Of a DNA stretch of 64,000 nt, positions 22,886 through 34,960 are shown piece by piece. Within the stretch, counting starts at the first letter, position 1, and each line of letters starts with the position of its first letter. Source of the stretch: Chloroflexota bacterium (GTDB lineage Bacteria; Chloroflexota; UBA11872). Both the position numbers and the translations under genes were made by a program. A model generated the notes under the pieces. The model worked only from the letters and a program-made list of their open reading frames with translations. It did not search any database and had not been told where the DNA came from. The DNA is taken from positions 519,009 to 583,008 of the forward strand of contig OZ244806.1 in the NCBI GenBank assembly GCA_965220075.1. The letters run 5' to 3'.

Positions 22886-23449
22886 TTGCGCCCGCACGAC
22901 GAACCGTCAGAGGAGCAGCTGGACGAGCTCATACGGGCCGCCGCGCGTCTCGACCGCGACGCCTTCGGTGAGATATACCGCGCCTTCGCTCCCAAGATCC
23001 ATAGGTTCATCGCCTACCAGATCGGGGATCGGGTAACCGCCGAGGACCTGACCAACCAGGTGTTCCTGCGCGCCATGGAGGCGATCGCTCGATACGAGCA
23101 CCGCTCGGTTGGGGAGTTCACCGCCTGGCTCTTCCGAATCGCCCGAAACGTGGTCGTGGATAACTGGCGCGCCCGCAAGGACACGGTCCCGCTCGAAGAA
23201 GCCTTGGTGGCGCAGCCCGTGGACACGCTCGATTCGCACTTCGAATCGCTGGCGCGCCGCGATGAGCTGCGTCGCGGCTTGCGGCGGCTCACCGACGATC
23301 AGCGCCTCGTGCTCACCTACCGATTCGGGCTGGGAATGAGTCATGCCGAGACGGCCCGGCTCATGGGGCGTAACGAGCCCGCCGTCCGTGCGTTGCAATT
23401 TCGAGCGATTGCGACGCTGCGCAACGTCTTGGCCGAAGAGGACGCATGA
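22886..23449 (+). CDS. ECF-type RNA polymerase sigma factor (sigma-70 family, group IV)
   Basis: Region 2 (FGEIYRAFAPKIHRFIAYQIGDRVTAEDLTNQVFLRA) and region 4 (LTDDQRLVLTYRFGLGMSHAETARLMGRNEPAVRALQFRAI). Confidence 0.8.
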   Translation: MRPHDEPSEEQLDELIRAAARLDRDAFGEIYRAFAPKIHRFIAYQIGDRVTAEDLTNQVFLRAMEAIARYEHRSVGEFTAWLFRIARNVVVDNWRARKDTVPLEEALVAQPVDTLDSHFESLARRDELRRGLRRLTDDQRLVLTYRFGLGMSHAETARLMGRNEPAVRALQFRAIATLRNVLAEEDA

Positions 23450-25800
23450 GTCCGGAGTTGCAGACCGCCTTCGAAGTGAGCCTCGAGCGCCTGCTGCGCG
23501 GTGAGGCCACGCTCGAACAGTGCCTGCGTGACTTCCCGCGGCATCGCGGCGAGCTGCGCGACTTTTTGGTGATCGCCCTGGACCTGGAGGGCATGACCCC
23601 GCTGCCAATGTCCGACGCCGCCCTGCAGCGTGGTCTCGCGCTCACGCAGGGAGAGCTCGACCGGCGGCGCCTGCGCGCCGCCTCCACCCCGGCGCCCGCC
23701 CTTTGGGATCGCATCACCGCACGCGTCCCACGCTTCAGACCGTTGCGACTGGCGAGTCTGGCGGCCACCTTCGCCGTTGCCCTCATCGCGTACGGCGGCG
23801 TGACCCTGGCCGCTGTCGGCAGCGGTCCCGACAGCGCCCTCTACGGCTACCGTCTGGCGCTCGAGGAGTTCCGTATCTCGTTCGCCGCGGACGAGGACCG
23901 CGCGGCCCTCTACCTCGACACGGCCGAGGAGCGGCTGCGCGAGATCGAGCGTACCGCGGTCGGCAGCGACTCCGAGGCGGTTCAGCGCGCCTCCGACGCC
24001 TACGAGTCGCTAGTGCGCAAAGGCGTGTCGGCGCTCGGCGACGCCAGCGCCAATCCGGCGCCGCAACGGCGTGAGCGCGCCGTTGCGGCCATCCAGTCGT
24101 TCCGTGCTCGACTCCGTGAGCACGAGCGGCGCTTCGAGAGCATCACCGCCGGATTGGCGCCGGCCTTCCAAGCGCCCGTCACCCGCGCCGGCACCTCGGC
24201 GTCGGCCGGCTTGGCGCACGTGCAGAGCGGCGCCATCTTGGCCTTGGCGCCCACGCCATTCGCGGCCACGCCCTCGTCAGCGCCGCCCGCTATCACCGCC
24301 ACCGCCCCACCGACCGTGACGCCGCGGCCCGCCGTCCAGTCCCCACCCACGCCGGTGCCCACCGCAACGCAGACCGCGCCAAGCGTTACGACGGCTTCTC
24401 CAACCCCGCAGGCCCAGGCCGCCGCGGTGGACGCCGCCCCCGCCGACGCCGTTCTGATCGGCGTGCTCGATCTGCTCGAAGAGGGACGCGCGGTTGTCTC
24501 CGGCGTGGAGCTGCGTGTGCCGGCGGGACCGGACGCGCCGGACTTCGATCCGAGTCAGTTCGCGATCGGTGCTTGGGTCGAGGTCGCCGCTACCCTGAGC
24601 CCCGAAGGCGTTCTGTTCCTGCACGAGCTCAGCCTGCTCGCGCCCCCCGCCAGCGAACCCGCGCCTGCGGCAGCCGACTCTGACGCCGAACAGACGGCCA
24701 CGCCCGGCCCGCCGCCCGTGGCGGAGCCTACGCCCGACGCGGAAGTGACGGCCGAGGCAAGCCCGTCGCCGCAGCCCGGCGCGGCCCCTGCTGCCGGTGC
24801 CACACCCTCGCCCGAAGCCGAGCCCGCTGAAACACCCACGGCTGCGCCCGATGAGACGCCTCAGCCCACGGCCACCGCGGCGCCCGACTCCGCGGAAGAG
24901 CCCGGAGAAGTCACGCCCACGCCTGCGCCCGCACCTGAGACCGAGCCTACGGAGACACCCACGGCCACGCCCGGCGAGACTCCCCAGCCCACCGCCACTG
25001 CGGCGCCCGACTCCGAGGAAGAGCCCGGAGAAGTCACGCCCACGCCTGCGCCCGCACCTGAGACCGAGCCTACGGAGACACCCGCGGCCGAGCCCGGCGA
25101 GACCCCTCAGCCCACCGCCACCGCGGCGCCGGACTCCGCGGAAGAGCCCGGAGAAGTCACGCCAACGCCCGCGCCCGCACCTGACACCGAGCCTACCGAG
25201 ACGCCCACGGCCGCGCCCGGCGAGACTCCGCAGCCCACCTCCACCGCGGCGCCCGACTCCGCGGAAGAGACCGTCGAGGTCTCGCCCACGCCGCAGGCCG
25301 AGACCGGAGACGCTCCCGCGCTGGCGCTTAGTCCGTCACTGCTGGGGGTGTTGCAGGCCTTAGACGAGAGTCGCCTAGTCGTGGCGGGAGTGACGTTCGT
25401 GCGGTCCGACGACCCACCGCTCGAGATTCGTGGAACGCCGGCGATCGGGGACAAGGTGAGCGTGGAGTTCGAGGTCGCGACCGGCCCCGACGGTGAGTCC
25501 CTGCTGACTGCCCACGTGCTTGCGGCGCACGAGCCCGCCGGCGCGCAGCCTTCTTCGCACGCGCTCGTGCGGATCGAAGGCGTCGTCGAAGCCGTGAGCG
25601 ACGAGATGGTGCAGGTGGACGGTCAGATAGTGACGCTGCGAGGCGGTGAGGCGCCGACTGAAGTGCAAGGCGTGATCGAGGTCGGCGTCAGAGTCCGAAT
25701 TGAAGCGCTCGCCGCCGCGGCGGGCTATGAAGCCCTGCGCATAGTCGTCATCGAGTCCGCTGTCCAGGCGGCGGTCCCGAACGCGCCGCCGGTAGGCTAG
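23446..25800 (+). CDS. Putative membrane-anchored anti-sigma factor with a Pro/Thr/Glu-rich tandem-repeat linker and a C-terminal beta-rich domain
   Basis: Its ATG overlaps the sigma-factor stop (ATGA). A cytoplasmic N-terminus is followed by a TM segment (LASLAATFAVALIAYGGVTLAAV), then 41-aa repeats, then a C-terminal domain that looks DUF5666-like. Confidence 0.55.
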   Translation: MSPELQTAFEVSLERLLRGEATLEQCLRDFPRHRGELRDFLVIALDLEGMTPLPMSDAALQRGLALTQGELDRRRLRAASTPAPALWDRITARVPRFRPLRLASLAATFAVALIAYGGVTLAAVGSGPDSALYGYRLALEEFRISFAADEDRAALYLDTAEERLREIERTAVGSDSEAVQRASDAYESLVRKGVSALGDASANPAPQRRERAVAAIQSFRARLREHERRFESITAGLAPAFQAPVTRAGTSASAGLAHVQSGAILALAPTPFAATPSSAPPAITATAPPTVTPRPAVQSPPTPVPTATQTAPSVTTASPTPQAQAAAVDAAPADAVLIGVLDLLEEGRAVVSGVELRVPAGPDAPDFDPSQFAIGAWVEVAATLSPEGVLFLHELSLLAPPASEPAPAAADSDAEQTATPGPPPVAEPTPDAEVTAEASPSPQPGAAPAAGATPSPEAEPAETPTAAPDETPQPTATAAPDSAEEPGEVTPTPAPAPETEPTETPTATPGETPQPTATAAPDSEEEPGEVTPTPAPAPETEPTETPAAEPGETPQPTATAAPDSAEEPGEVTPTPAPAPDTEPTETPTAAPGETPQPTSTAAPDSAEETVEVSPTPQAETGDAPALALSPSLLGVLQALDESRLVVAGVTFVRSDDPPLEIRGTPAIGDKVSVEFEVATGPDGESLLTAHVLAAHEPAGAQPSSHALVRIEGVVEAVSDEMVQVDGQIVTLRGGEAPTEVQGVIEVGVRVRIEALAAAAGYEALRIVVIESAVQAAVPNAPPVG
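24862..25300 (+). repeat. Tandem direct repeat, 123 bp unit, about 3.6 copies, in frame within the anti-sigma gene
   Basis: Unit starts at 24862, 24985, 25108 and 25231. It encodes TPQPTATAAPDSAEEPGEVTPTPAPAPETEPTETPTA(T/A)PGE with a few substitutions per copy. Confidence 0.85.
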
Positions 25801-27046: not shown

Positions 27047-28141
27047 CTAAGTGAGCGACCTGCGCAGGCGGCGCCGTTCCCGGTGCCGCTCCAGCGCCAG
27101 CTCGATCAGGCGCGACATCAGCTCCCGGTCGCCAACGCCGCTCGCCCTCCATAGCTTCGGGAACATGCTGATCGAGGTGAAACCCGGAATCGTATTGATC
27201 TCACTCACGAAGGGATCGAGCGACCCGCCGTCGACCAGAAAATCCACCCGGGCATACCCAGCCGCGTCCACCGCGCGAAACGTCCGCACGGCCATTTCTC
27301 GAAGACGCTCCGACAGCTCCGCCGGCAGGTCAGCCGGAATCACCTCCCGCGAGGTTCCATCGACGTATTTGGCCGCATAGTCATAGAACTCGTTGCCGGG
27401 GATCACTTCGCCGCACACGGACGCTTCGGGCGCGTCGTTGCCTAGCACGCTCACCTCGATCTCACGCGCCGATGGGACCGCTTGCTCGACGATGACGCGG
27501 CGGTCGAACTCGGCCGCCAGCCGCAGCGCCGCTGCCAGCTCGGTGCTGTCGTGAGCCTTCGAGATGCCCACGCTGCTTCCCAGGTTGCAAGGCTTTACGA
27601 ACACCGGATAGTCGAAGCCGCCTTCAACCTGGCGCCGGACGCGGTCAAGTTCGTGCTGAATGTCACGCCGCGTTACTATTATCCAGTCGGCTACCGGCAG
27701 CCCGCTGTCGCGCAGCACGCCGTTCGTGATCCCTTTGTCCAGGCCCACGGCCGATCCGGCTACGCCCGACCCCACGTACGCCAGGCCGGCCAGCTCGAAG
27801 AGTCCTTGCACGGTGCCGTCCTCGCCGTAGGTCCCGTGCAGCACCGGGAACACTACGTCCAGCCGCCCGATCGAATGTTCGCCCGCGCGCCGCCGCACCT
27901 CGGCGATCGGCAGCGCGGCGGGCAGACTCACTCCGTCCGCCGCTCGCTCACCGCCGTCGGTCAGCACGCTCATCGGATCGGCGCTCAGCAGCCACTCGCC
28001 CGCGCGCGTGATCCCTATGGGCACAACCTCGTATAGCTCCGGGTCCAGGGACTCGAGCACGAAGCTGGCCGAGCGCAGCGAGACTTCGTGCTCGCCGGAG
28101 CGGCCTCCGAAGACCACCCCCACGCGCAGACGCCGGTTCAA
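27047..28141 (-). CDS. ddl: D-alanine--D-alanine ligase
   Basis: [16 protein letters not shown]...[25 protein letters not shown]...EINTIPGFT. The TTG start overlaps the pyrE stop. Confidence 0.9.
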
Positions 28142-28803
28142 AGCGCCAGCCCCAGGCTCGTGCGTGTGAAGAGCGGCTCGAAGCTGAATCCCGCCTGGCG
28201 CAGCGCCTCCCCGGCGCCCTCCTCGCGGTCGATCACCACCAGCACCCGCACTACCTCGGCCCCGAAATCCCGCAGCGCCGTCGCCGATTCGATCACCTGG
28301 CCCCCGCTGGTCACCACGTCCTCGATCAGAGCCACTCGCTCGCCGGCTTCGAGCGCGCCTTCGAAGCGCTTGAGGGTGCCGTAGGTCTTGGCTTCACCCC
28401 GGATGAGCACGCTCGGGATGCCGCTGGCCAACGCCGTAGCCGTTGCGAGCGGCACCGCGCCCAGCTCCGGTCCCGCAATGCGCTGCACCCCTTCTGGCAG
28501 CCGGGCCGCCAGAGCCGCGCCCAGGTCGCGCAATAGGGCCGGATTGGTGGCGAACAGAAACTTATCCAGGTAGTAGCGGCTGCGCCGGCCCGACCGCAGC
28601 AAGAAGTCGCCCTCCAGATACGCGGCTTGGACGATGCGCCGTCCGAGGTCGCTTAGATCGATCGTTCCGGGTGCCGGTGCCGCCACGCTCACCAGACTAG
28701 CAATCGCCGCCGGTGACGTAGCCGTGCGCAACAGGACCACCCCCACGGTCGCGCCGCCGGGACGGATTGCATGGCCTGTTGTGTCACCATGGCGGCTCTC
28801 CAT
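28138..28803 (-). CDS. pyrE: Orotate phosphoribosyltransferase
   Basis: [16 protein letters not shown]...[14 protein letters not shown] (PRPP-binding motif). The start shown is the maximal one; an internal GTG near VSVAAPAPG is more likely. The rest of the 679-aa listed ORF is an artefact. Confidence 0.8.
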
Positions 28804-28896
28804 TTGCGATCGGCGCCCGCGCCAGCGGCTCAGCGGCGCGCAGGGGTCCGGGCGCCGCCAATCTCCTGACGGGGCGCGCGCGGGCATGACAGGGCC

Positions 28897-30705
28897 ATGA
28901 CTTTCGAGATCGCGCTCGCGTTCGCCATCGCCGCGGCGGCCATCATCGCCTTCGCGTCGGGTCGGCTGCCGCCCGACCTGGTCGGCATCGGGGTTCTTTT
29001 GGCCACCGTATTCGGCGGCCTGATCTCGCACGAGAGCGCCCTGATGGGCTTCGCCAATCCGGCCATCTTTACGATCGGCGCCATTTTCGTAATCAGCGCC
29101 GGGCTCACGCACACCGGGGTCGCATTCGCGATTGGACGCGTGATCCGGCGCCTGGCGGGCCGCAGCGAGGCTCGCCTCATCGTCGTATCGATGCTTCTGG
29201 TCGCGGGGCTTTCCGCCTTTATGAACTCGGTCGGTGCGGTGGCGGTTCTGCTCCCGGCCGTGGTCGCCGCCGCGCGCGATATGCAGGCGCCGGTGGCGCG
29301 CGTGCTGATGCCCGTTTCGTTCGGCTCGCTGTTGGGCGCCACGCTCACCCTCGTGGGCACTCCCTCCAACATCCTTGTCTCCGGCGTGCTTGCGAATCAG
29401 GGCTACCGAGAGTTCGGCCTCTTCGAGTTCACACCGTTCGGTGTCGTCTTGCTTGCCGTGGGCGTTGCGGTGGTTTTGTTGACCCGCCGCGCGCTGCTGC
29501 CCGACCGACCGGCCGGCGCGCAGGCCGCCGCCATGCTGCCGGCCGAGCGCAAACAGCACGCGCCCTACCGGCTCGAGGAGCGTCTCTTCGAGGCCGCCCT
29601 CGCGCCGGAGAGCGCACTGGCCGGCCAAACGCTGCGCGATTCGGCCTTGGGCCGCACGTATGGGATTGGCGTGCTGGCAATCCTGCGGGACGGGCGCGCG
29701 ATCGCGGCGCCCGTCCCCGATGTCGCGCTTCTCGCGGGCGACCGCCTGATCCTCAGCGGGCGCGCCGAGGACGTGGAGCGCATGGGCCGCGAGCACCCAC
29801 TCGAGATCAGCGGCGCCCAGAGCATGCACACCGAATTCCTGCAGGCGGGCGCCGTTGGCATCGTCGAGGTCGTGCTGGGACCGCGCAGCCGCTTCATCGG
29901 ACGCACGCTCGCCCAGCTCCGCTTTCGCGAGCAGTACGGGGCCAACGTGCTCGGAATCTGGCGGGACGGCGCCCCGCGCCGCACGCGCCTCGCCGCCATG
30001 CCGCTGCAAGCCGGCGACGCGATGCTGCTGCAGGCGCCGGTGGAGCGGTTGGCGCAGTTTCGCGCCTCGCCGGACCTGGTGGTGCTGACCGAGGAGACGG
30101 GCGCGCGCCTCCGCAGGCGGCGCGCACCCATCGCGGTCGCGATCCTCCTCGGTTTCGTCATCGCGCTGGTGCTCCACCTGCAGCCGGTGGCGATCGTGGC
30201 GGTCACCGCCGCGGCGGCCATGGTGCTCACCGGCTGCGTGCGCATGAGCGAGGCGCGTCAGTCAATCGAATGGCGTGTGATCGTGCTGATCGGCTCGATG
30301 TCCGCCCTGGCGCAGGCCGCCCTCGATACCGGCGCCGCCGCCTGGCTGGCCGACGGCATGGCGGCCAGCCTTGGCGCGCTGGGTCCCTTGCCGGTCATGG
30401 CCGGCGTGTTGCTGCTCACCGCCGTCTTTGCTCACGTGATGGGTAACCACGTCAGCGCGCTCCTCATGGCGCCGCTCGCCATCCACGCGGCCCTGGGCGT
30501 GGGCGCCGACCCGCGTATGTTCGCCATGGCCGTGGCGCTTGGCGCCACCTTGATCTTCATGAACCCATACGCCCACCCCGGTCACATCCTCGTTACGGGC
30601 CCCGGCAACTACCGCTTCGGCGATTTCGTGCGCTTTGGCGCGCCGCTTGGCGTCCTGGCACTCGCGGCGGCGTTCGGCATGCTGCTGCTGGTGTTCGGCA
30701 ATTGA
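28897..30705 (+). CDS. SLC13/DASS-family anion transporter with two central TrkA-C domains
   Basis: Two blocks of TM helices flank two TrkA-C-like repeats (LAGQTLRDSALGRTYGIGVLAILRDGR...; IGRTLAQLRFREQYGANVLGIWRDG...). Confidence 0.75.
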   Translation: MTFEIALAFAIAAAAIIAFASGRLPPDLVGIGVLLATVFGGLISHESALMGFANPAIFTIGAIFVISAGLTHTGVAFAIGRVIRRLAGRSEARLIVVSMLLVAGLSAFMNSVGAVAVLLPAVVAAARDMQAPVARVLMPVSFGSLLGATLTLVGTPSNILVSGVLANQGYREFGLFEFTPFGVVLLAVGVAVVLLTRRALLPDRPAGAQAAAMLPAERKQHAPYRLEERLFEAALAPESALAGQTLRDSALGRTYGIGVLAILRDGRAIAAPVPDVALLAGDRLILSGRAEDVERMGREHPLEISGAQSMHTEFLQAGAVGIVEVVLGPRSRFIGRTLAQLRFREQYGANVLGIWRDGAPRRTRLAAMPLQAGDAMLLQAPVERLAQFRASPDLVVLTEETGARLRRRRAPIAVAILLGFVIALVLHLQPVAIVAVTAAAAMVLTGCVRMSEARQSIEWRVIVLIGSMSALAQAALDTGAAAWLADGMAASLGALGPLPVMAGVLLLTAVFAHVMGNHVSALLMAPLAIHAALGVGADPRMFAMAVALGATLIFMNPYAHPGHILVTGPGNYRFGDFVRFGAPLGVLALAAAFGMLLLVFGN

Positions 30706-30827: not shown

Positions 30828-31715
30828 GTGAGCGCGGAGCGCCACGCCCAGGCCGCTCGCGAGATCGCGCTGGCCGTCTTTCCCTCCGATCGGCGTGGGA
30901 TCCGGGCGGCCTTGCAGTGCCTGCCGCGCGACGCCTACGCGCGCGCCGCGTGGGCTATTTGCGCCCGCCCGCCCGGCGTGGCCTTGATCGCCACGGGCTT
31001 CCCGGTGGGTGCGATTGGTGAGACCGACGGGCCGCCCGGTGCGCGCGCGCTAGGCGACGCCATGGCCGCGCTGGGCTGGAGCGTGGTCGGCGTTGCCTGC
31101 CCTACTACTCGGTCCGCCGTGAGCACCGTCATTCAGCCGCGCTATCCGGTGGAAGTAGTCCCCGCCGTCTCTGTCCCGGACGCCGCCGCGGCCTGCCGTG
31201 GATTGCTCGCGAAGTACAACCCGGATGCGGTGGTTGCGATCGAGCGGCCCGGCCTGACCGCGCAGGGACGCCTGATCAACATGCACGGCCAGGATCTCGC
31301 GCAACGAGCGGCCGCGCTCGACGGCTTGATGCGCGCGCCTCTCACCATCGCCATCGGCGACGGCGGCAACGAGGTCGGCATGGGCGCCATCGCCGGTTTC
31401 CTGGCCGCGCGGGAGATCCTTTCAGCGCCCTGCGTGACCCCGGCCACGCATCTCCTGCTGGCCTCGGTGAGCAACTGGGGGGCCTATGGGCTCGCGGCCA
31501 TGCTTGCGATCGTGACCGGAACCGAGGTGCTACCGTCGCCGGACGACGATGCGGCCTGGATGGACGCGCTGCGGCGGATAGGTGCGGCGGACGGGGTGAC
31601 CGGTGAGTTGACCGCGTGCACGGTTGACGGGCATCCGCGCGCGCGAACGGCCGCGGTTCTGGACGATCTGCGCAAGATCCAGCGCCGTTACGCGGGCGCG
31701 CCGCCAGGCGCTTAG
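30828..31715 (+). CDS. DUF4392-like protein (C-terminal half of the D-glutamate cyclase architecture)
   Basis: GFPVGAIGETDGPPGARAL...AIGDGGNEVGMG. The family assignment is from memory; the gene is co-directional with and 3 nt upstream of a DUF1445-like gene. Confidence 0.45.
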   Translation: MSAERHAQAAREIALAVFPSDRRGIRAALQCLPRDAYARAAWAICARPPGVALIATGFPVGAIGETDGPPGARALGDAMAALGWSVVGVACPTTRSAVSTVIQPRYPVEVVPAVSVPDAAAACRGLLAKYNPDAVVAIERPGLTAQGRLINMHGQDLAQRAAALDGLMRAPLTIAIGDGGNEVGMGAIAGFLAAREILSAPCVTPATHLLLASVSNWGAYGLAAMLAIVTGTEVLPSPDDDAAWMDALRRIGAADGVTGELTACTVDGHPRARTAAVLDDLRKIQRRYAGAPPGA

Positions 31716-31718
31716 GAC

Positions 31719-32525
31719 GTGAGCCGCGGCTTGCGATTCGCCACCGGCGCGGAGGTGCGCGCGGCCTCCCGCGCGGGCGTGTGGGACCGCCCTACCAGCG
31801 GGCTCGCGCCCGGGTATGTGCAGGCCAACCTGGTAATGCTGCCGGGTGATCTGGCGGACGACTTCGAGCGGTTTTGCCGCGCCAACCCCATCGCCTGTCC
31901 GCTGCTCGAGCGCACCGCTCCGGGCACTCCCGAGCCCGTCCGCTTTGCGCCCGGCGCCGACGTTCGCCGTGACGCTCCGCGCTACCGCGTCTATCTGAAC
32001 GGCGAGTCGGCGGCAGGTGAACCGCACGACGTGCTGCGTCACTGGACGGACGACATGGTCGCGTTCCTCATAGGCTGCAGCTTCACCTTCGAGGCGGCCA
32101 TGCTCCGGGCCGGCTTGCCCCTGCGGCACGTCGAGTCGGGATGCAACGTGCCCATGTACCGCACCTCGCGCCTTTGCCGGCCGCGCGGCGTCTTCCATGG
32201 CCCCATGGTCGTGAGCATGCGCCCCATCGCGTCGCGGCGGGTGGCCGAGGCGCGGCGCGTGACCGGCCGCTTCCCGCGCATGCACGGCGCGCCGGTGCAC
32301 GTGGGCGATCCGAGCGCGCTCGGCATCGCCCACCTCGACCGGCCGGACTGGGGTGATCCGGTGGAGATCCGTCAGGGCGAGGAGCCGGTGTTCTGGGGGT
32401 GTGGGGTGACTCCGCAGGCGGTCGCCATCGCCTCGCGCCCGGCCTTGATGCTCACCCACGCTCCGGGCCACATGTTCGTGACCGACCGCCGCGACGCCGA
32501 GTTCGAGGAGCCCGACGCGGCCTAG
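31719..32525 (+). CDS. DUF1445/UPF0317 putative hydro-lyase (N-terminal half of the D-glutamate cyclase architecture)
   Basis: GYVQANLVMLP...FCRANPIACPLLE...GAPVHVGDP. GTG start at 31719. Confidence 0.5.
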   Translation: MSRGLRFATGAEVRAASRAGVWDRPTSGLAPGYVQANLVMLPGDLADDFERFCRANPIACPLLERTAPGTPEPVRFAPGADVRRDAPRYRVYLNGESAAGEPHDVLRHWTDDMVAFLIGCSFTFEAAMLRAGLPLRHVESGCNVPMYRTSRLCRPRGVFHGPMVVSMRPIASRRVAEARRVTGRFPRMHGAPVHVGDPSALGIAHLDRPDWGDPVEIRQGEEPVFWGCGVTPQAVAIASRPALMLTHAPGHMFVTDRRDAEFEEPDAA

Positions 32526-32594: not shown

Positions 32595-33449
32595 CTATCC
32601 GCGCGAAGGCTCGCCCATCTTCCGGCGCGCTTCGTGCACGAGCTCGGGCAGGTGCCCGTCGTTCGCGAGCCGCTGCTCCAAGTGACGCATGCGGCGCGGT
32701 CCGGCTGTTTTGATCATGGTTTCGCCATACGCCCGCGTGGCCCAGAACCTCACCAGCGACCTGATGTCTTCCCGCAGCGTTGTCAAATCGTCATCGTGAA
32801 AGCGCTGTGACACGTTGATCGTGAACATGCGCCGGCGGGTTCCGCCTCCAAACGACGCGTGCTTGAGGCCCTGGTTGAACATCACCAGGTCGCCCGGGCG
32901 GGTTTCCAGCGCCACCGCGGGCATGTCGTGACCCGAGACGCCGATTTGATCCTCGACGCGCCCCGTCGGACTGCTCGACACGATCTGCTCGAGCGACTCG
33001 GCGTACCCCTCACCGTGACGGTGGCTGCCCGGAATCACACGCAGGCACCCCGATTCGCGCCCGACGGGGTCCAGATAGAACGCGAATTTCAGGAAGCGGT
33101 ACTTCGCGCGCGTGTAGCCGTCGGAATGCCAGCGTGTATTGCCCACGTAGAAGTTGCCGTCGCTGCTCTCGTAGTTGTAGTCGTCGCCCAGCAAGTCGCC
33201 GGCCACGTCGTCGATGCGCGGATCGTCCAGCAGCGCGCTCAGGTATTCGCTCTGGTCGATAAAGGGCACCAGCGCCGATTGCCGCTCGTGGTCGTGCGTC
33301 CGACCATGGTGACCGCCGCCGTGCTCGGACCACACGCGCTCGAACTCCTCGGTGATGGCCTCGGCTTCCGCGGCGAAGGCCCCCGGAAAGCTGAGGTAGC
33401 CGAACGTCTCGAAGAAGGTCCGCTGCTGATCGGTGAGCTTCATGCTCAT
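32595..33449 (-). CDS. Phytanoyl-CoA dioxygenase (PhyH) family Fe(II)/2-oxoglutarate oxygenase
   Basis: WHSDG...HxD-type motif...VIPGSHRHGE...R...F. Confidence 0.7.
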   Translation of the reverse strand: MSMKLTDQQRTFFETFGYLSFPGAFAAEAEAITEEFERVWSEHGGGHHGRTHDHERQSALVPFIDQSEYLSALLDDPRIDDVAGDLLGDDYNYESSDGNFYVGNTRWHSDGYTRAKYRFLKFAFYLDPVGRESGCLRVIPGSHRHGEGYAESLEQIVSSSPTGRVEDQIGVSGHDMPAVALETRPGDLVMFNQGLKHASFGGGTRRRMFTINVSQRFHDDDLTTLREDIRSLVRFWATRAYGETMIKTAGPRRMRHLEQRLANDGHLPELVHEARRKMGEPSRG

Positions 33450-33667: not shown

Positions 33668-34960
33668 ATGTTTGGAATCGGCGCACCTGAATTCTTCGCC
33701 ATCGTAGTCATCGCGATCGTCGTTCTGGGACCTGATCGCGTGCCGGTGGCGTTTCGCGCCATGGGGCGGGCCGTGCGGCGTCTGCGCGCCATGACCCGCG
33801 AGTTCCGCGCGGAGTTTGCCGAGGAGTTTCAATTCCTCTACGAGGAAGTAGATGTCCTGCGCAAGGAGGCCGCCGATACGCGTGCGGAGCTCCAGGAGAT
33901 CCGCCGCGAGCTCAGCGAGACCGTGCAGGAAACCACGAGCGAGCTGACCAGTGTCGGTGAAGAGCTTGGGAACGAAGTGAAAGGCGTGGCTTCCGACGTT
34001 CAGGGCGCGGTGTCAGTCGAGGGTCTTGAGCAGGGAATACGGGCGGCCGCCGTTGACGGCCCGGCCAGCCCGCCCGCGCCCGCCGTCGCCCCCGCCGCTG
34101 CAGCCAGCCCGACCGCACCTGCCTTCAAACCCGAACCGCTGGGCCCGGCCGATGCAATGGCGCTGGCCATCGCCGAAACCTTTGGCTCGAACGGCGCTCC
34201 GGACACCTCAGTCAGATCCCTCCCCGCCTTTGACGCCGTCCCGCCCGCCGCCGCGCCGGACCCGCCCTCGCCGGTTGAGCAGTTGGTCGCCTCGCGCGCA
34301 CGCCTTTCAGCCTTTGCCGCGGACCCGCCGGACCCGCCCGAGACCGTTGCGGCGCCTGCCGCCCCCGCCAGCCCCCCGCCGATCCCGGTGTCTCAGGCGT
34401 CCGAGCCGCCATACGCCCCGTTGTCCGCGGCGGGCATTGGCGCCGCGTCGGAGCCGGGCCTGCACAACCAGCTGGGCGGCTTCGTGCGCCTGATGGTGAT
34501 GCGGCAGCTCGAGCAGGACCAGGCGTTTCGAAGCGAAGCCGAGCGGACCTTGCGGGCGCAGGCGCATCTGGACGCGGACCGTGCGGCCGAGATCGAAGAC
34601 GCCGGCCTGAGCGACATCGCCGACGCCTGGATAGCGCAGCGGCGCCAGCTCGTTCGGCACGGAACGGTTGTGCGGCAACCATCCAAGGATGGTTCGGGCG
34701 TGATCGAGCTTTTCGAGTGCCCCTACCGCCTCGGGCCGGGCGACGCGCACCCGGTGTGCGACGTCAGCAACGTCTACGACGTCGAGTACTTCCAGCGGTT
34801 GGGTGTGGAGGCCAGCTACGCGCAACGCATGTCCGATGGGGCGCCGCATTGTCAGCTGAAGATCGCGCTTACCGCGAAGTCGGAAGCCGCCGGCGGGCAC
34901 GCTGACTCGGCGCCGCTGGACGGTGACCCCGCGTCACCCGCGCCCCAACCAGCACGCTGA
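33668..34960 (+). CDS. TatA/TatB-like twin-arginine translocase subunit fused to a long Pro/Ala-rich linker and a C-terminal Cys-containing domain
   Basis: N-terminus MFGIGAPEFFAIVVIAIVVLGPDRVPVAFRAMGRAVRRLR is a Tat TM helix plus amphipathic helix. The C-terminal ~150 aa contain ELFECPYRLGPGDAHPVCDVS...APHCQL, which is possibly ATC-hydrolase-like (unverified). Confidence 0.55.
   Translation: MFGIGAPEFFAIVVIAIVVLGPDRVPVAFRAMGRAVRRLRAMTREFRAEFAEEFQFLYEEVDVLRKEAADTRAELQEIRRELSETVQETTSELTSVGEELGNEVKGVASDVQGAVSVEGLEQGIRAAAVDGPASPPAPAVAPAAAASPTAPAFKPEPLGPADAMALAIAETFGSNGAPDTSVRSLPAFDAVPPAAAPDPPSPVEQLVASRARLSAFAADPPDPPETVAAPAAPASPPPIPVSQASEPPYAPLSAAGIGAASEPGLHNQLGGFVRLMVMRQLEQDQAFRSEAERTLRAQAHLDADRAAEIEDAGLSDIADAWIAQRRQLVRHGTVVRQPSKDGSGVIELFECPYRLGPGDAHPVCDVSNVYDVEYFQRLGVEASYAQRMSDGAPHCQLKIALTAKSEAAGGHADSAPLDGDPASPAPQPAR

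Follow-up and report, generated by a model that had tools for sequence, protein, structure and literature searches.

The two genes considered here lie in a 64,000-nucleotide stretch of contig OZ244806.1 from a Chloroflexota bacterium (hereafter the window) and are referred to as gene A and gene B, with products A and B. The genes and the other features discussed, in the window and in comparison loci (L numbers; proteins carry P numbers), are collected in Table 1. A and B are co-directional and separated by 3 nucleotides, as a preliminary description of this DNA had stated, and the public annotation of this sequence predicts identical products of 295 and 268 residues. The motifs quoted in that description were also located, ATGFPVGAIGETDGPPG in protein A and FCRANPIACPLLE in protein B.

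Table 1. Coordinates of the gene pair, its neighbours and related gene arrangements in other genomes.
Feature	Position	Strand	Description
Gene A	30828-31715	+	GTG start, 295 residues; DUF4392/PF14336 (GLUCM-like_C, TON_0340 family)
Gene B	31719-32525	+	GTG start, 268 residues; DUF1445/PF07286 (UPF0317, YcsI/PxpI family, "putative hydro-lyase")
A/B junction	31713-31721	+	GCT TAG GAC GTG, read from the sequence: stop codon of A (TAG), single codon GAC, start codon of B (GTG)
Transporter, DASS/SLC13-like	28897-30705	+	CitMHS, two TrkA_C and Na_sulph_symp domains (Pfam)
PhyH gene	32595-33449		Convergent, downstream of B (Pfam)
Gammaproteobacterial B-pxpABC-A cluster	L076:4771-11024		Also in L045, L067, L077, L079, L071, L072, L065, L048 and L041
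PxpC-DUF4392 fusions	L041:6996-8765, L048:7029-8822, L043:117-1232 (cut)		Proteins P0241-P0264

The two genes share a common reading frame with nothing but TAG and GAC between them, a spacing that fits translational coupling. In relatives the corresponding junctions are 4-nucleotide overlaps or gaps of 2-4 nucleotides, in other frames, and thus the tight coupling is kept while the shared frame is not conserved. A programmed read-through of the TAG codon, giving an A-B fusion protein, was considered and dismissed as a coincidence on account of these other frames and overlaps. No sigma-70-like promoter was detected, and terminator-like sites were not more frequent than in shuffled sequence, none of them being significant. 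A scan of the whole window with Rfam gave no family at the gathering score and no tRNA, rRNA or riboswitch.

The family assignments of the preliminary description proved to be correct in Pfam profile searches. Protein A matched PF14336 with 183.7 bits (E = 6.8e-54, cutoff 27.9) over profile positions 10-291 of 291, and protein B matched PF07286 (D-Glu_cyclase) with 215.9 bits (E = 2.5e-64, cutoff 25). Protein B also scored 376.4 bits against the NCBIfam equivalog NF003969 "putative hydro-lyase", above its cutoff of 324. Among proteins of known structure, A has the same family and fold as TON_0340 from Thermococcus onnurineus (PDB 4dwz, 5gkx, 5gl2-4; E = 1e-19, 26-27% identity). An AlphaFold2 model of A (mean predicted local distance difference test score, pLDDT, 95.3) superimposed with template modelling (TM) scores of 0.77-0.85 on the TON_0340 structures 5gl2, 4fc5 and 4dwz in a Foldseek search and on nothing else meaningful. 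Protein B was matched by phmmer to PSPTO_5379 (PDB 2pif, E = 1.2e-86) and Atu3911 (PDB 3db9, E = 7.2e-84), and its model (pLDDT 91.2) gave TM scores of 0.81-0.86 to this UPF0317 fold and again nothing else meaningful, a weak match to an NrpR-like domain reaching only 0.37. PSPTO_5379, Atu3911 and Bacillus subtilis YcsI/PxpI share the family and fold of B at about 50% identity and fall within the same NCBIfam equivalog; the former two are structural-genomics entries and the latter is known as an operon member, none of them having an assigned activity. The motifs LIGCSFTFE and FWGCGVTPQ had raised the idea that B is a two-cysteine enzyme resembling Asp/Glu racemases, but this was rejected when Foldseek returned the UPF0317 fold and no racemase.

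With an alignment of A homologs, 80 reference-genome loci were fetched. Of these, 62 have a B homolog in the same orientation as A, or 62 of 76 when loci cut off upstream are set aside, four of the 18 loci that lack B being uninformative in that they end just upstream of A. Conversely, five of six look-ups anchored on B homologs had a PF14336 gene directly upstream, the sixth having none within 5 kb. The adjacency of A and B is thus far beyond chance, and the DUF4392/DUF1445 pair is a conserved bacterial unit. In the 14 remaining loci without DUF1445 no consistent alternative partner of DUF4392 was found, the neighbours being unrelated housekeeping genes.

The pairs fall into three arrangement classes. 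In the window, in related Chloroflexota and in Gemmataceae (Planctomycetota), A precedes B and the two are tightly coupled. In 48 loci, mostly from Dehalococcoidia/SAR202, B precedes A; the genes beside the SAR202 pairs (SDR, galactonate-dehydratase-type enolase, amidase, MFS and MutS) show no link to glutamate. In Gammaproteobacteria, B and A are on the same strand but approximately 2.5 kb apart, with pxp genes between them. The classes are coherent in both proteins, the nearest neighbour belonging to the same class in 67 of 67 cases, and the pairwise distance matrices of A and B for these 67 pairs are correlated (r = 0.879; none of 2000 Mantel permutations as high). Four tight B-then-A loci with tiny gaps (L046, L040, L044 and L054) were inspected as candidate fusions and found not to be fused. 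On a nanopore contig (L082:5400-7167, P0218) the reading frame continues from the C-terminal end of A into B uninterrupted by a stop, in the order opposite to that of the animal fusion described below. The B part is 65% identical to that of the window, while the A part contains three internal stops and may reflect an assembly error or a pseudogene, so that this is weak evidence of fusion. In another locus (L089:4058-4998), which shares the Gemmataceae-type synteny of a PseudoU_synth_2 gene followed by A and B, the DUF4392 gene upstream of B was called as two pieces of 190 and 109 residues, which suggests a frameshift or an assembly error.

Conservation at the level of single residues cuts across the three classes. 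In TON_0340 two Mn2+/Mg2+ ions are bound by E59, D61, E115, D157, E161 and D246 (PMC5132392), which correspond to E65, D67, E139, D178, E182 and D267 of A in the alignment with the PDB sequence. All six are invariant in the alignment of A homologs, and over the 67 pairs of all three classes they are conserved with one exception at one position; as judged from this alignment, the predicted two-metal (Mn2+/Mg2+) acidic site of A is intact. In B, residues C53, C60, C120, C228, H189, H247, R168, D81 and D85 are invariant across the classes. Metal, cysteine and histidine sites common to all classes suggest the same chemistry whatever the arrangement. A further position of B, Cys153 (window 32175-32177), has invariant residues nearby and differs between classes, being cysteine in the A-then-B and pxp-linked proteins and threonine in 46 of the 48 B-then-A proteins.

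In higher animals the homologs of TON_0340 and Atu3911 are fused, and sequentially linked functions have been proposed for them by Sohn et al. (PMC5132392); the fused mouse protein was identified as D-glutamate cyclase by Ariyoshi et al. (PMC5339696). The purified vertebrate protein DGLUCY (C14orf159 / 9030617O03Rik; EC 4.2.1.48) is composed of DUF1445 and DUF4392, the same two Pfam families as the window pair, and as a single protein converts D-Glu into 5-oxo-D-proline (PMC5339696, PMC5132392). The statement in the preliminary description that animals fuse these domains in D-glutamate cyclase agrees with both papers. The DUF4392 part of DGLUCY keeps the metal-binding residues, as does A. On the other hand, DGLUCY is a single mitochondrial polypeptide with DUF1445 at the N-terminal and DUF4392 at the C-terminal end (PMC5132392, PMC5339696), whereas the window, compared from its genes alone, encodes both modules as two separate proteins from adjacent genes, with the DUF4392 gene first and with neither a targeting signal nor a coiled coil. 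The two genes of the window thus stand in the opposite order to the vertebrate domains, a point missed by the preliminary description, and it is the B-then-A class that has the order of the animal fusion. A split arrangement is implied in PMC5132392, six gut-bacterial "split homologs" of human GLUCM are listed in a table of a 2024 preprint (PMC11580864), and the Pfam entries themselves are named "D-glutamate cyclase-like, C-terminal" (PF14336) and "D-glutamate cyclase" (PF07286). The window pair thus belongs to a kind already known; the pairing is common in bacteria and the window copy is an ordinary member.

A connection to glutamate and 5-oxoproline emerges from other genomes. In 10-11 gammaproteobacterial loci the order is B-pxpA-pxpB-pxpC-A, usually followed by a class IV aminotransferase gene, and in five loci a divergent LysR regulator is present at the cluster. 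The genes enclosed by B and A encode PxpA (LamB/YcsF), PxpB (CT_C_D) and PxpC (CT_A_B), a set of the type of the prokaryotic 5-oxoprolinase PxpABC. PxpA and PxpB pass the NCBIfam cutoffs, but PxpC is recognized only by a domain-level model (214 bits, versus an equivalog cutoff of 500), indicating a divergent and apparently paralogous Pxp set. For the aminotransferase, models of D-amino-acid transaminases give the highest score (246 bits, versus 156 for branched-chain models), although below the curated cutoffs. In SAR92/Porticoccaceae, PxpC (CT_A_B, PF02626) and DUF4392 (PF14336) form one polypeptide of 584-607 residues, a fusion that comprises 24 clusters at 90% identity, extends down to 52% identity and has thousands of members in marine metagenomes. 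In B. subtilis the DUF1445 gene ycsI (= pxpI) lies inside the 5-oxoprolinase operon pxpA-ycsG-ycsI-kipI-kipA and not, like B, beside a DUF4392 gene; the Joint Genome Institute name for the family of B is "YcsI (UPF0317 family)". Fusion of DUF4392 to DUF1445 in vertebrates or to PxpC in Porticoccaceae, together with the operonic association of DUF1445 with Pxp in two phyla, ties both families to glutamate and 5-oxoproline, and these are independent lines of connection to that chemistry. PxpABC also acts on the glutamate/5-oxoproline pair, but consists of unrelated protein families and is ATP-dependent.

With about even confidence, our best reading is that A and B are the two subunits of an enzyme of the D-glutamate cyclase type, corresponding to vertebrate DGLUCY but unfused. 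Most likely they associate into a complex, in which A would provide the divalent-metal site and B the hydro-lyase module, and the TAG-GAC-GTG junction may couple their translation. Like the complex, the substrate and the reaction direction are inferred: the pair probably handles D-glutamate or 5-oxo-D-proline that originates in cell-wall metabolism or through spontaneous cyclisation, and probably does not belong to a dedicated catabolic island.

Several points weigh against this reading. Our literature search turned up no bacterial protein from the two families that had been assayed as a cyclase, and the sole biochemistry on a stand-alone DUF4392 protein describes TON_0340 as an Mn2+-dependent phosphatase and not a cyclase (PMC5132392). 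The co-variation of A and B owes part of its strength to the shared phylogeny of the species. Archaea and some bacteria have DUF4392 but no DUF1445 beside it, TON_0340 itself being a stand-alone archaeal protein without a DUF1445 partner, unlike A with its partner B, and Sohn et al. reported no Atu3911/DUF1445 homologues in archaea (PMC5132392). DUF1445 likewise occurs without DUF4392, as in the one B-anchored locus mentioned above, and each family can thus act alone or with other partners. Finally, PxpA, PxpB, PxpC and the class IV aminotransferase of L076, used as tblastn queries, had no match in the window at E <= 1e-3, so that the window, lacking pxpABC and a D-amino-acid transaminase, offers no local pathway context. 

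The phosphatase activity of TON_0340 leads to another possibility, namely that A dephosphorylates small molecules in an Mn2+-dependent manner and B is a hydro-lyase, the two acting in sequence on a small phosphorylated metabolite unrelated to D-glutamate. That activity was lost in the D157L and E59Q variants (PMC5132392), both residues are conserved in A, and sequential action is what Sohn et al. proposed for the fused domains. However, TON_0340 was active on generic phosphorus compounds with no physiological substrate assigned, D-glutamate cyclase is the only genetically and biochemically supported activity of the two-domain protein, and the pxp and D-transaminase context points to glutamate and oxoproline; we consider this alternative improbable. 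The same pxp context can be read in a way that leaves the pair less self-sufficient, A and B being accessory or stereospecificity modules of an ATP-dependent, 5-oxoprolinase-like lactamase of the PxpABC type, which they would allow to process, for example, 5-oxo-D-proline or D-glutamate, with the pxp genes located outside the window. The conserved five-gene B-pxpABC-A cluster, the breadth of the PxpC-DUF4392 fusion, the divergence of the flanked PxpC, the position of ycsI within the B. subtilis operon and the fact that PxpABC paralogs are known to accept other lactams all speak for such a role. Yet pxpA, pxpB and pxpC are absent not only from the window but also from the vicinity of the pair in every locus of the A-then-B and B-then-A classes, and the assay of vertebrate DGLUCY used the single protein in purified form. 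We rate this accessory role, the main rival, as unlikely. In a further reading the pair would supply 5-oxoproline metabolite repair or salvage with its missing D-enantiomer arm and would physically partner PxpABC-type lactamases instead of working as a stand-alone cyclase, the window pair being its minimal form. This reading rests on the DUF4392-PxpC fusion and on the way both genes bracket pxpABC near a D-amino-acid-transaminase-like gene, and we regard it as unlikely; if true, it would give bacteria a route to recover or catabolise the 5-oxo-D-proline and D-glutamate of their peptidoglycan.

A different role was suggested by the preliminary description, which combined the pair with an SLC13 transporter and a convergent PhyH gene into a catabolic unit of the D-amino-acid or oxoproline type; the substrate of such a unit would be imported by the transporter. 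Both neighbours are indeed present by Pfam, although the transporter falls below the cutoff of the NCBIfam DASS model. It is co-directional and ends 122 nucleotides upstream of A, and several related Chloroflexota have a homologous transporter a few kb from the pair. In L001 and L003 it lies 1.9-2.7 kb before A (52% identity), in L088 a transporter with identical Pfam domains lies 3.8 kb upstream, and at the end of L004 there is a partial match (64% identity) 7.5 kb upstream. In relatives with the transporter 2-4 kb away, L088 among them, it is separated from the pair by genes that are unrelated or face the other way. No transporter stands beside the pair in L086/L087 or L002, and only in the window is it directly adjacent. 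The closest relative (70% identity in A, 78% in B) has Ddl and phosphoribosyltransferase genes upstream, an SH3_3 gene and glutamine synthetase downstream, and no transporter. A PhyH homolog was found near the pair in none of the 80 related loci. The surroundings in the window are of a housekeeping character, with genes for Ddl, a phosphoribosyltransferase, two members of the NAD-dependent sugar epimerase/dehydratase family, an AP-endonuclease-type TIM barrel, a HAD hydrolase, Sua5/YrdC, glutaredoxin and PheS/PheT. With transporter and PhyH unconserved and such surroundings, the catabolic-unit idea is not supported and appears distinctly improbable, and the transporter is a possible, tentative partner that is not conserved. 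What stands of the preliminary interpretation are the two families, the bacterial unit and a link to oxoproline (via the gammaproteobacterial pxpABC clusters).

D-glutamate is a constituent of almost every bacterial cell wall, but its breakdown and the fate of 5-oxo-D-proline are poorly understood in bacteria. If the pair is a bacterial D-glutamate cyclase, a function would be gained for two large families, now called a "domain of unknown function" and a "putative hydro-lyase", both of which are abundant in marine SAR202, SAR92, Planctomycetota and Chloroflexota. The roles of the individual domains of the human enzyme would become apparent, and a link would be established between D-amino-acid turnover and the 5-oxoprolinase PxpABC. 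The three arrangement classes, the B-pxpABC-A cluster and the abundant PxpC-DUF4392 fusion of Porticoccaceae are more interesting than the window copy, which has nothing unusual about it beyond being a clean, tightly coupled example suited to expression.

A few other observations were made in the window. Most of the open reading frame of 679 residues at 28138-30177 on the reverse strand is a GC-rich shadow lying opposite the transporter gene, and only its 3' part (approximately 28138-28750) is real, corresponding to the phosphoribosyltransferase gene (202 residues in the public call). A protein of 784 residues encoded at 23446-25800 has DUF5667 and DUF5666 domains and contains a repeat array (24818-25292) of 3.9 tandem copies of a unit of 123 nucleotides (41 residues) rich in Pro, Thr, Glu and Ala, with 89% identity between copies. 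In the protein of 430 residues encoded at 33668-34960 on the forward strand, a TatA/B-type N-terminus (PF02416, residues 4-49) precedes an Ala/Pro-rich extension of approximately 380 residues, which is unusually long for a Tat component.

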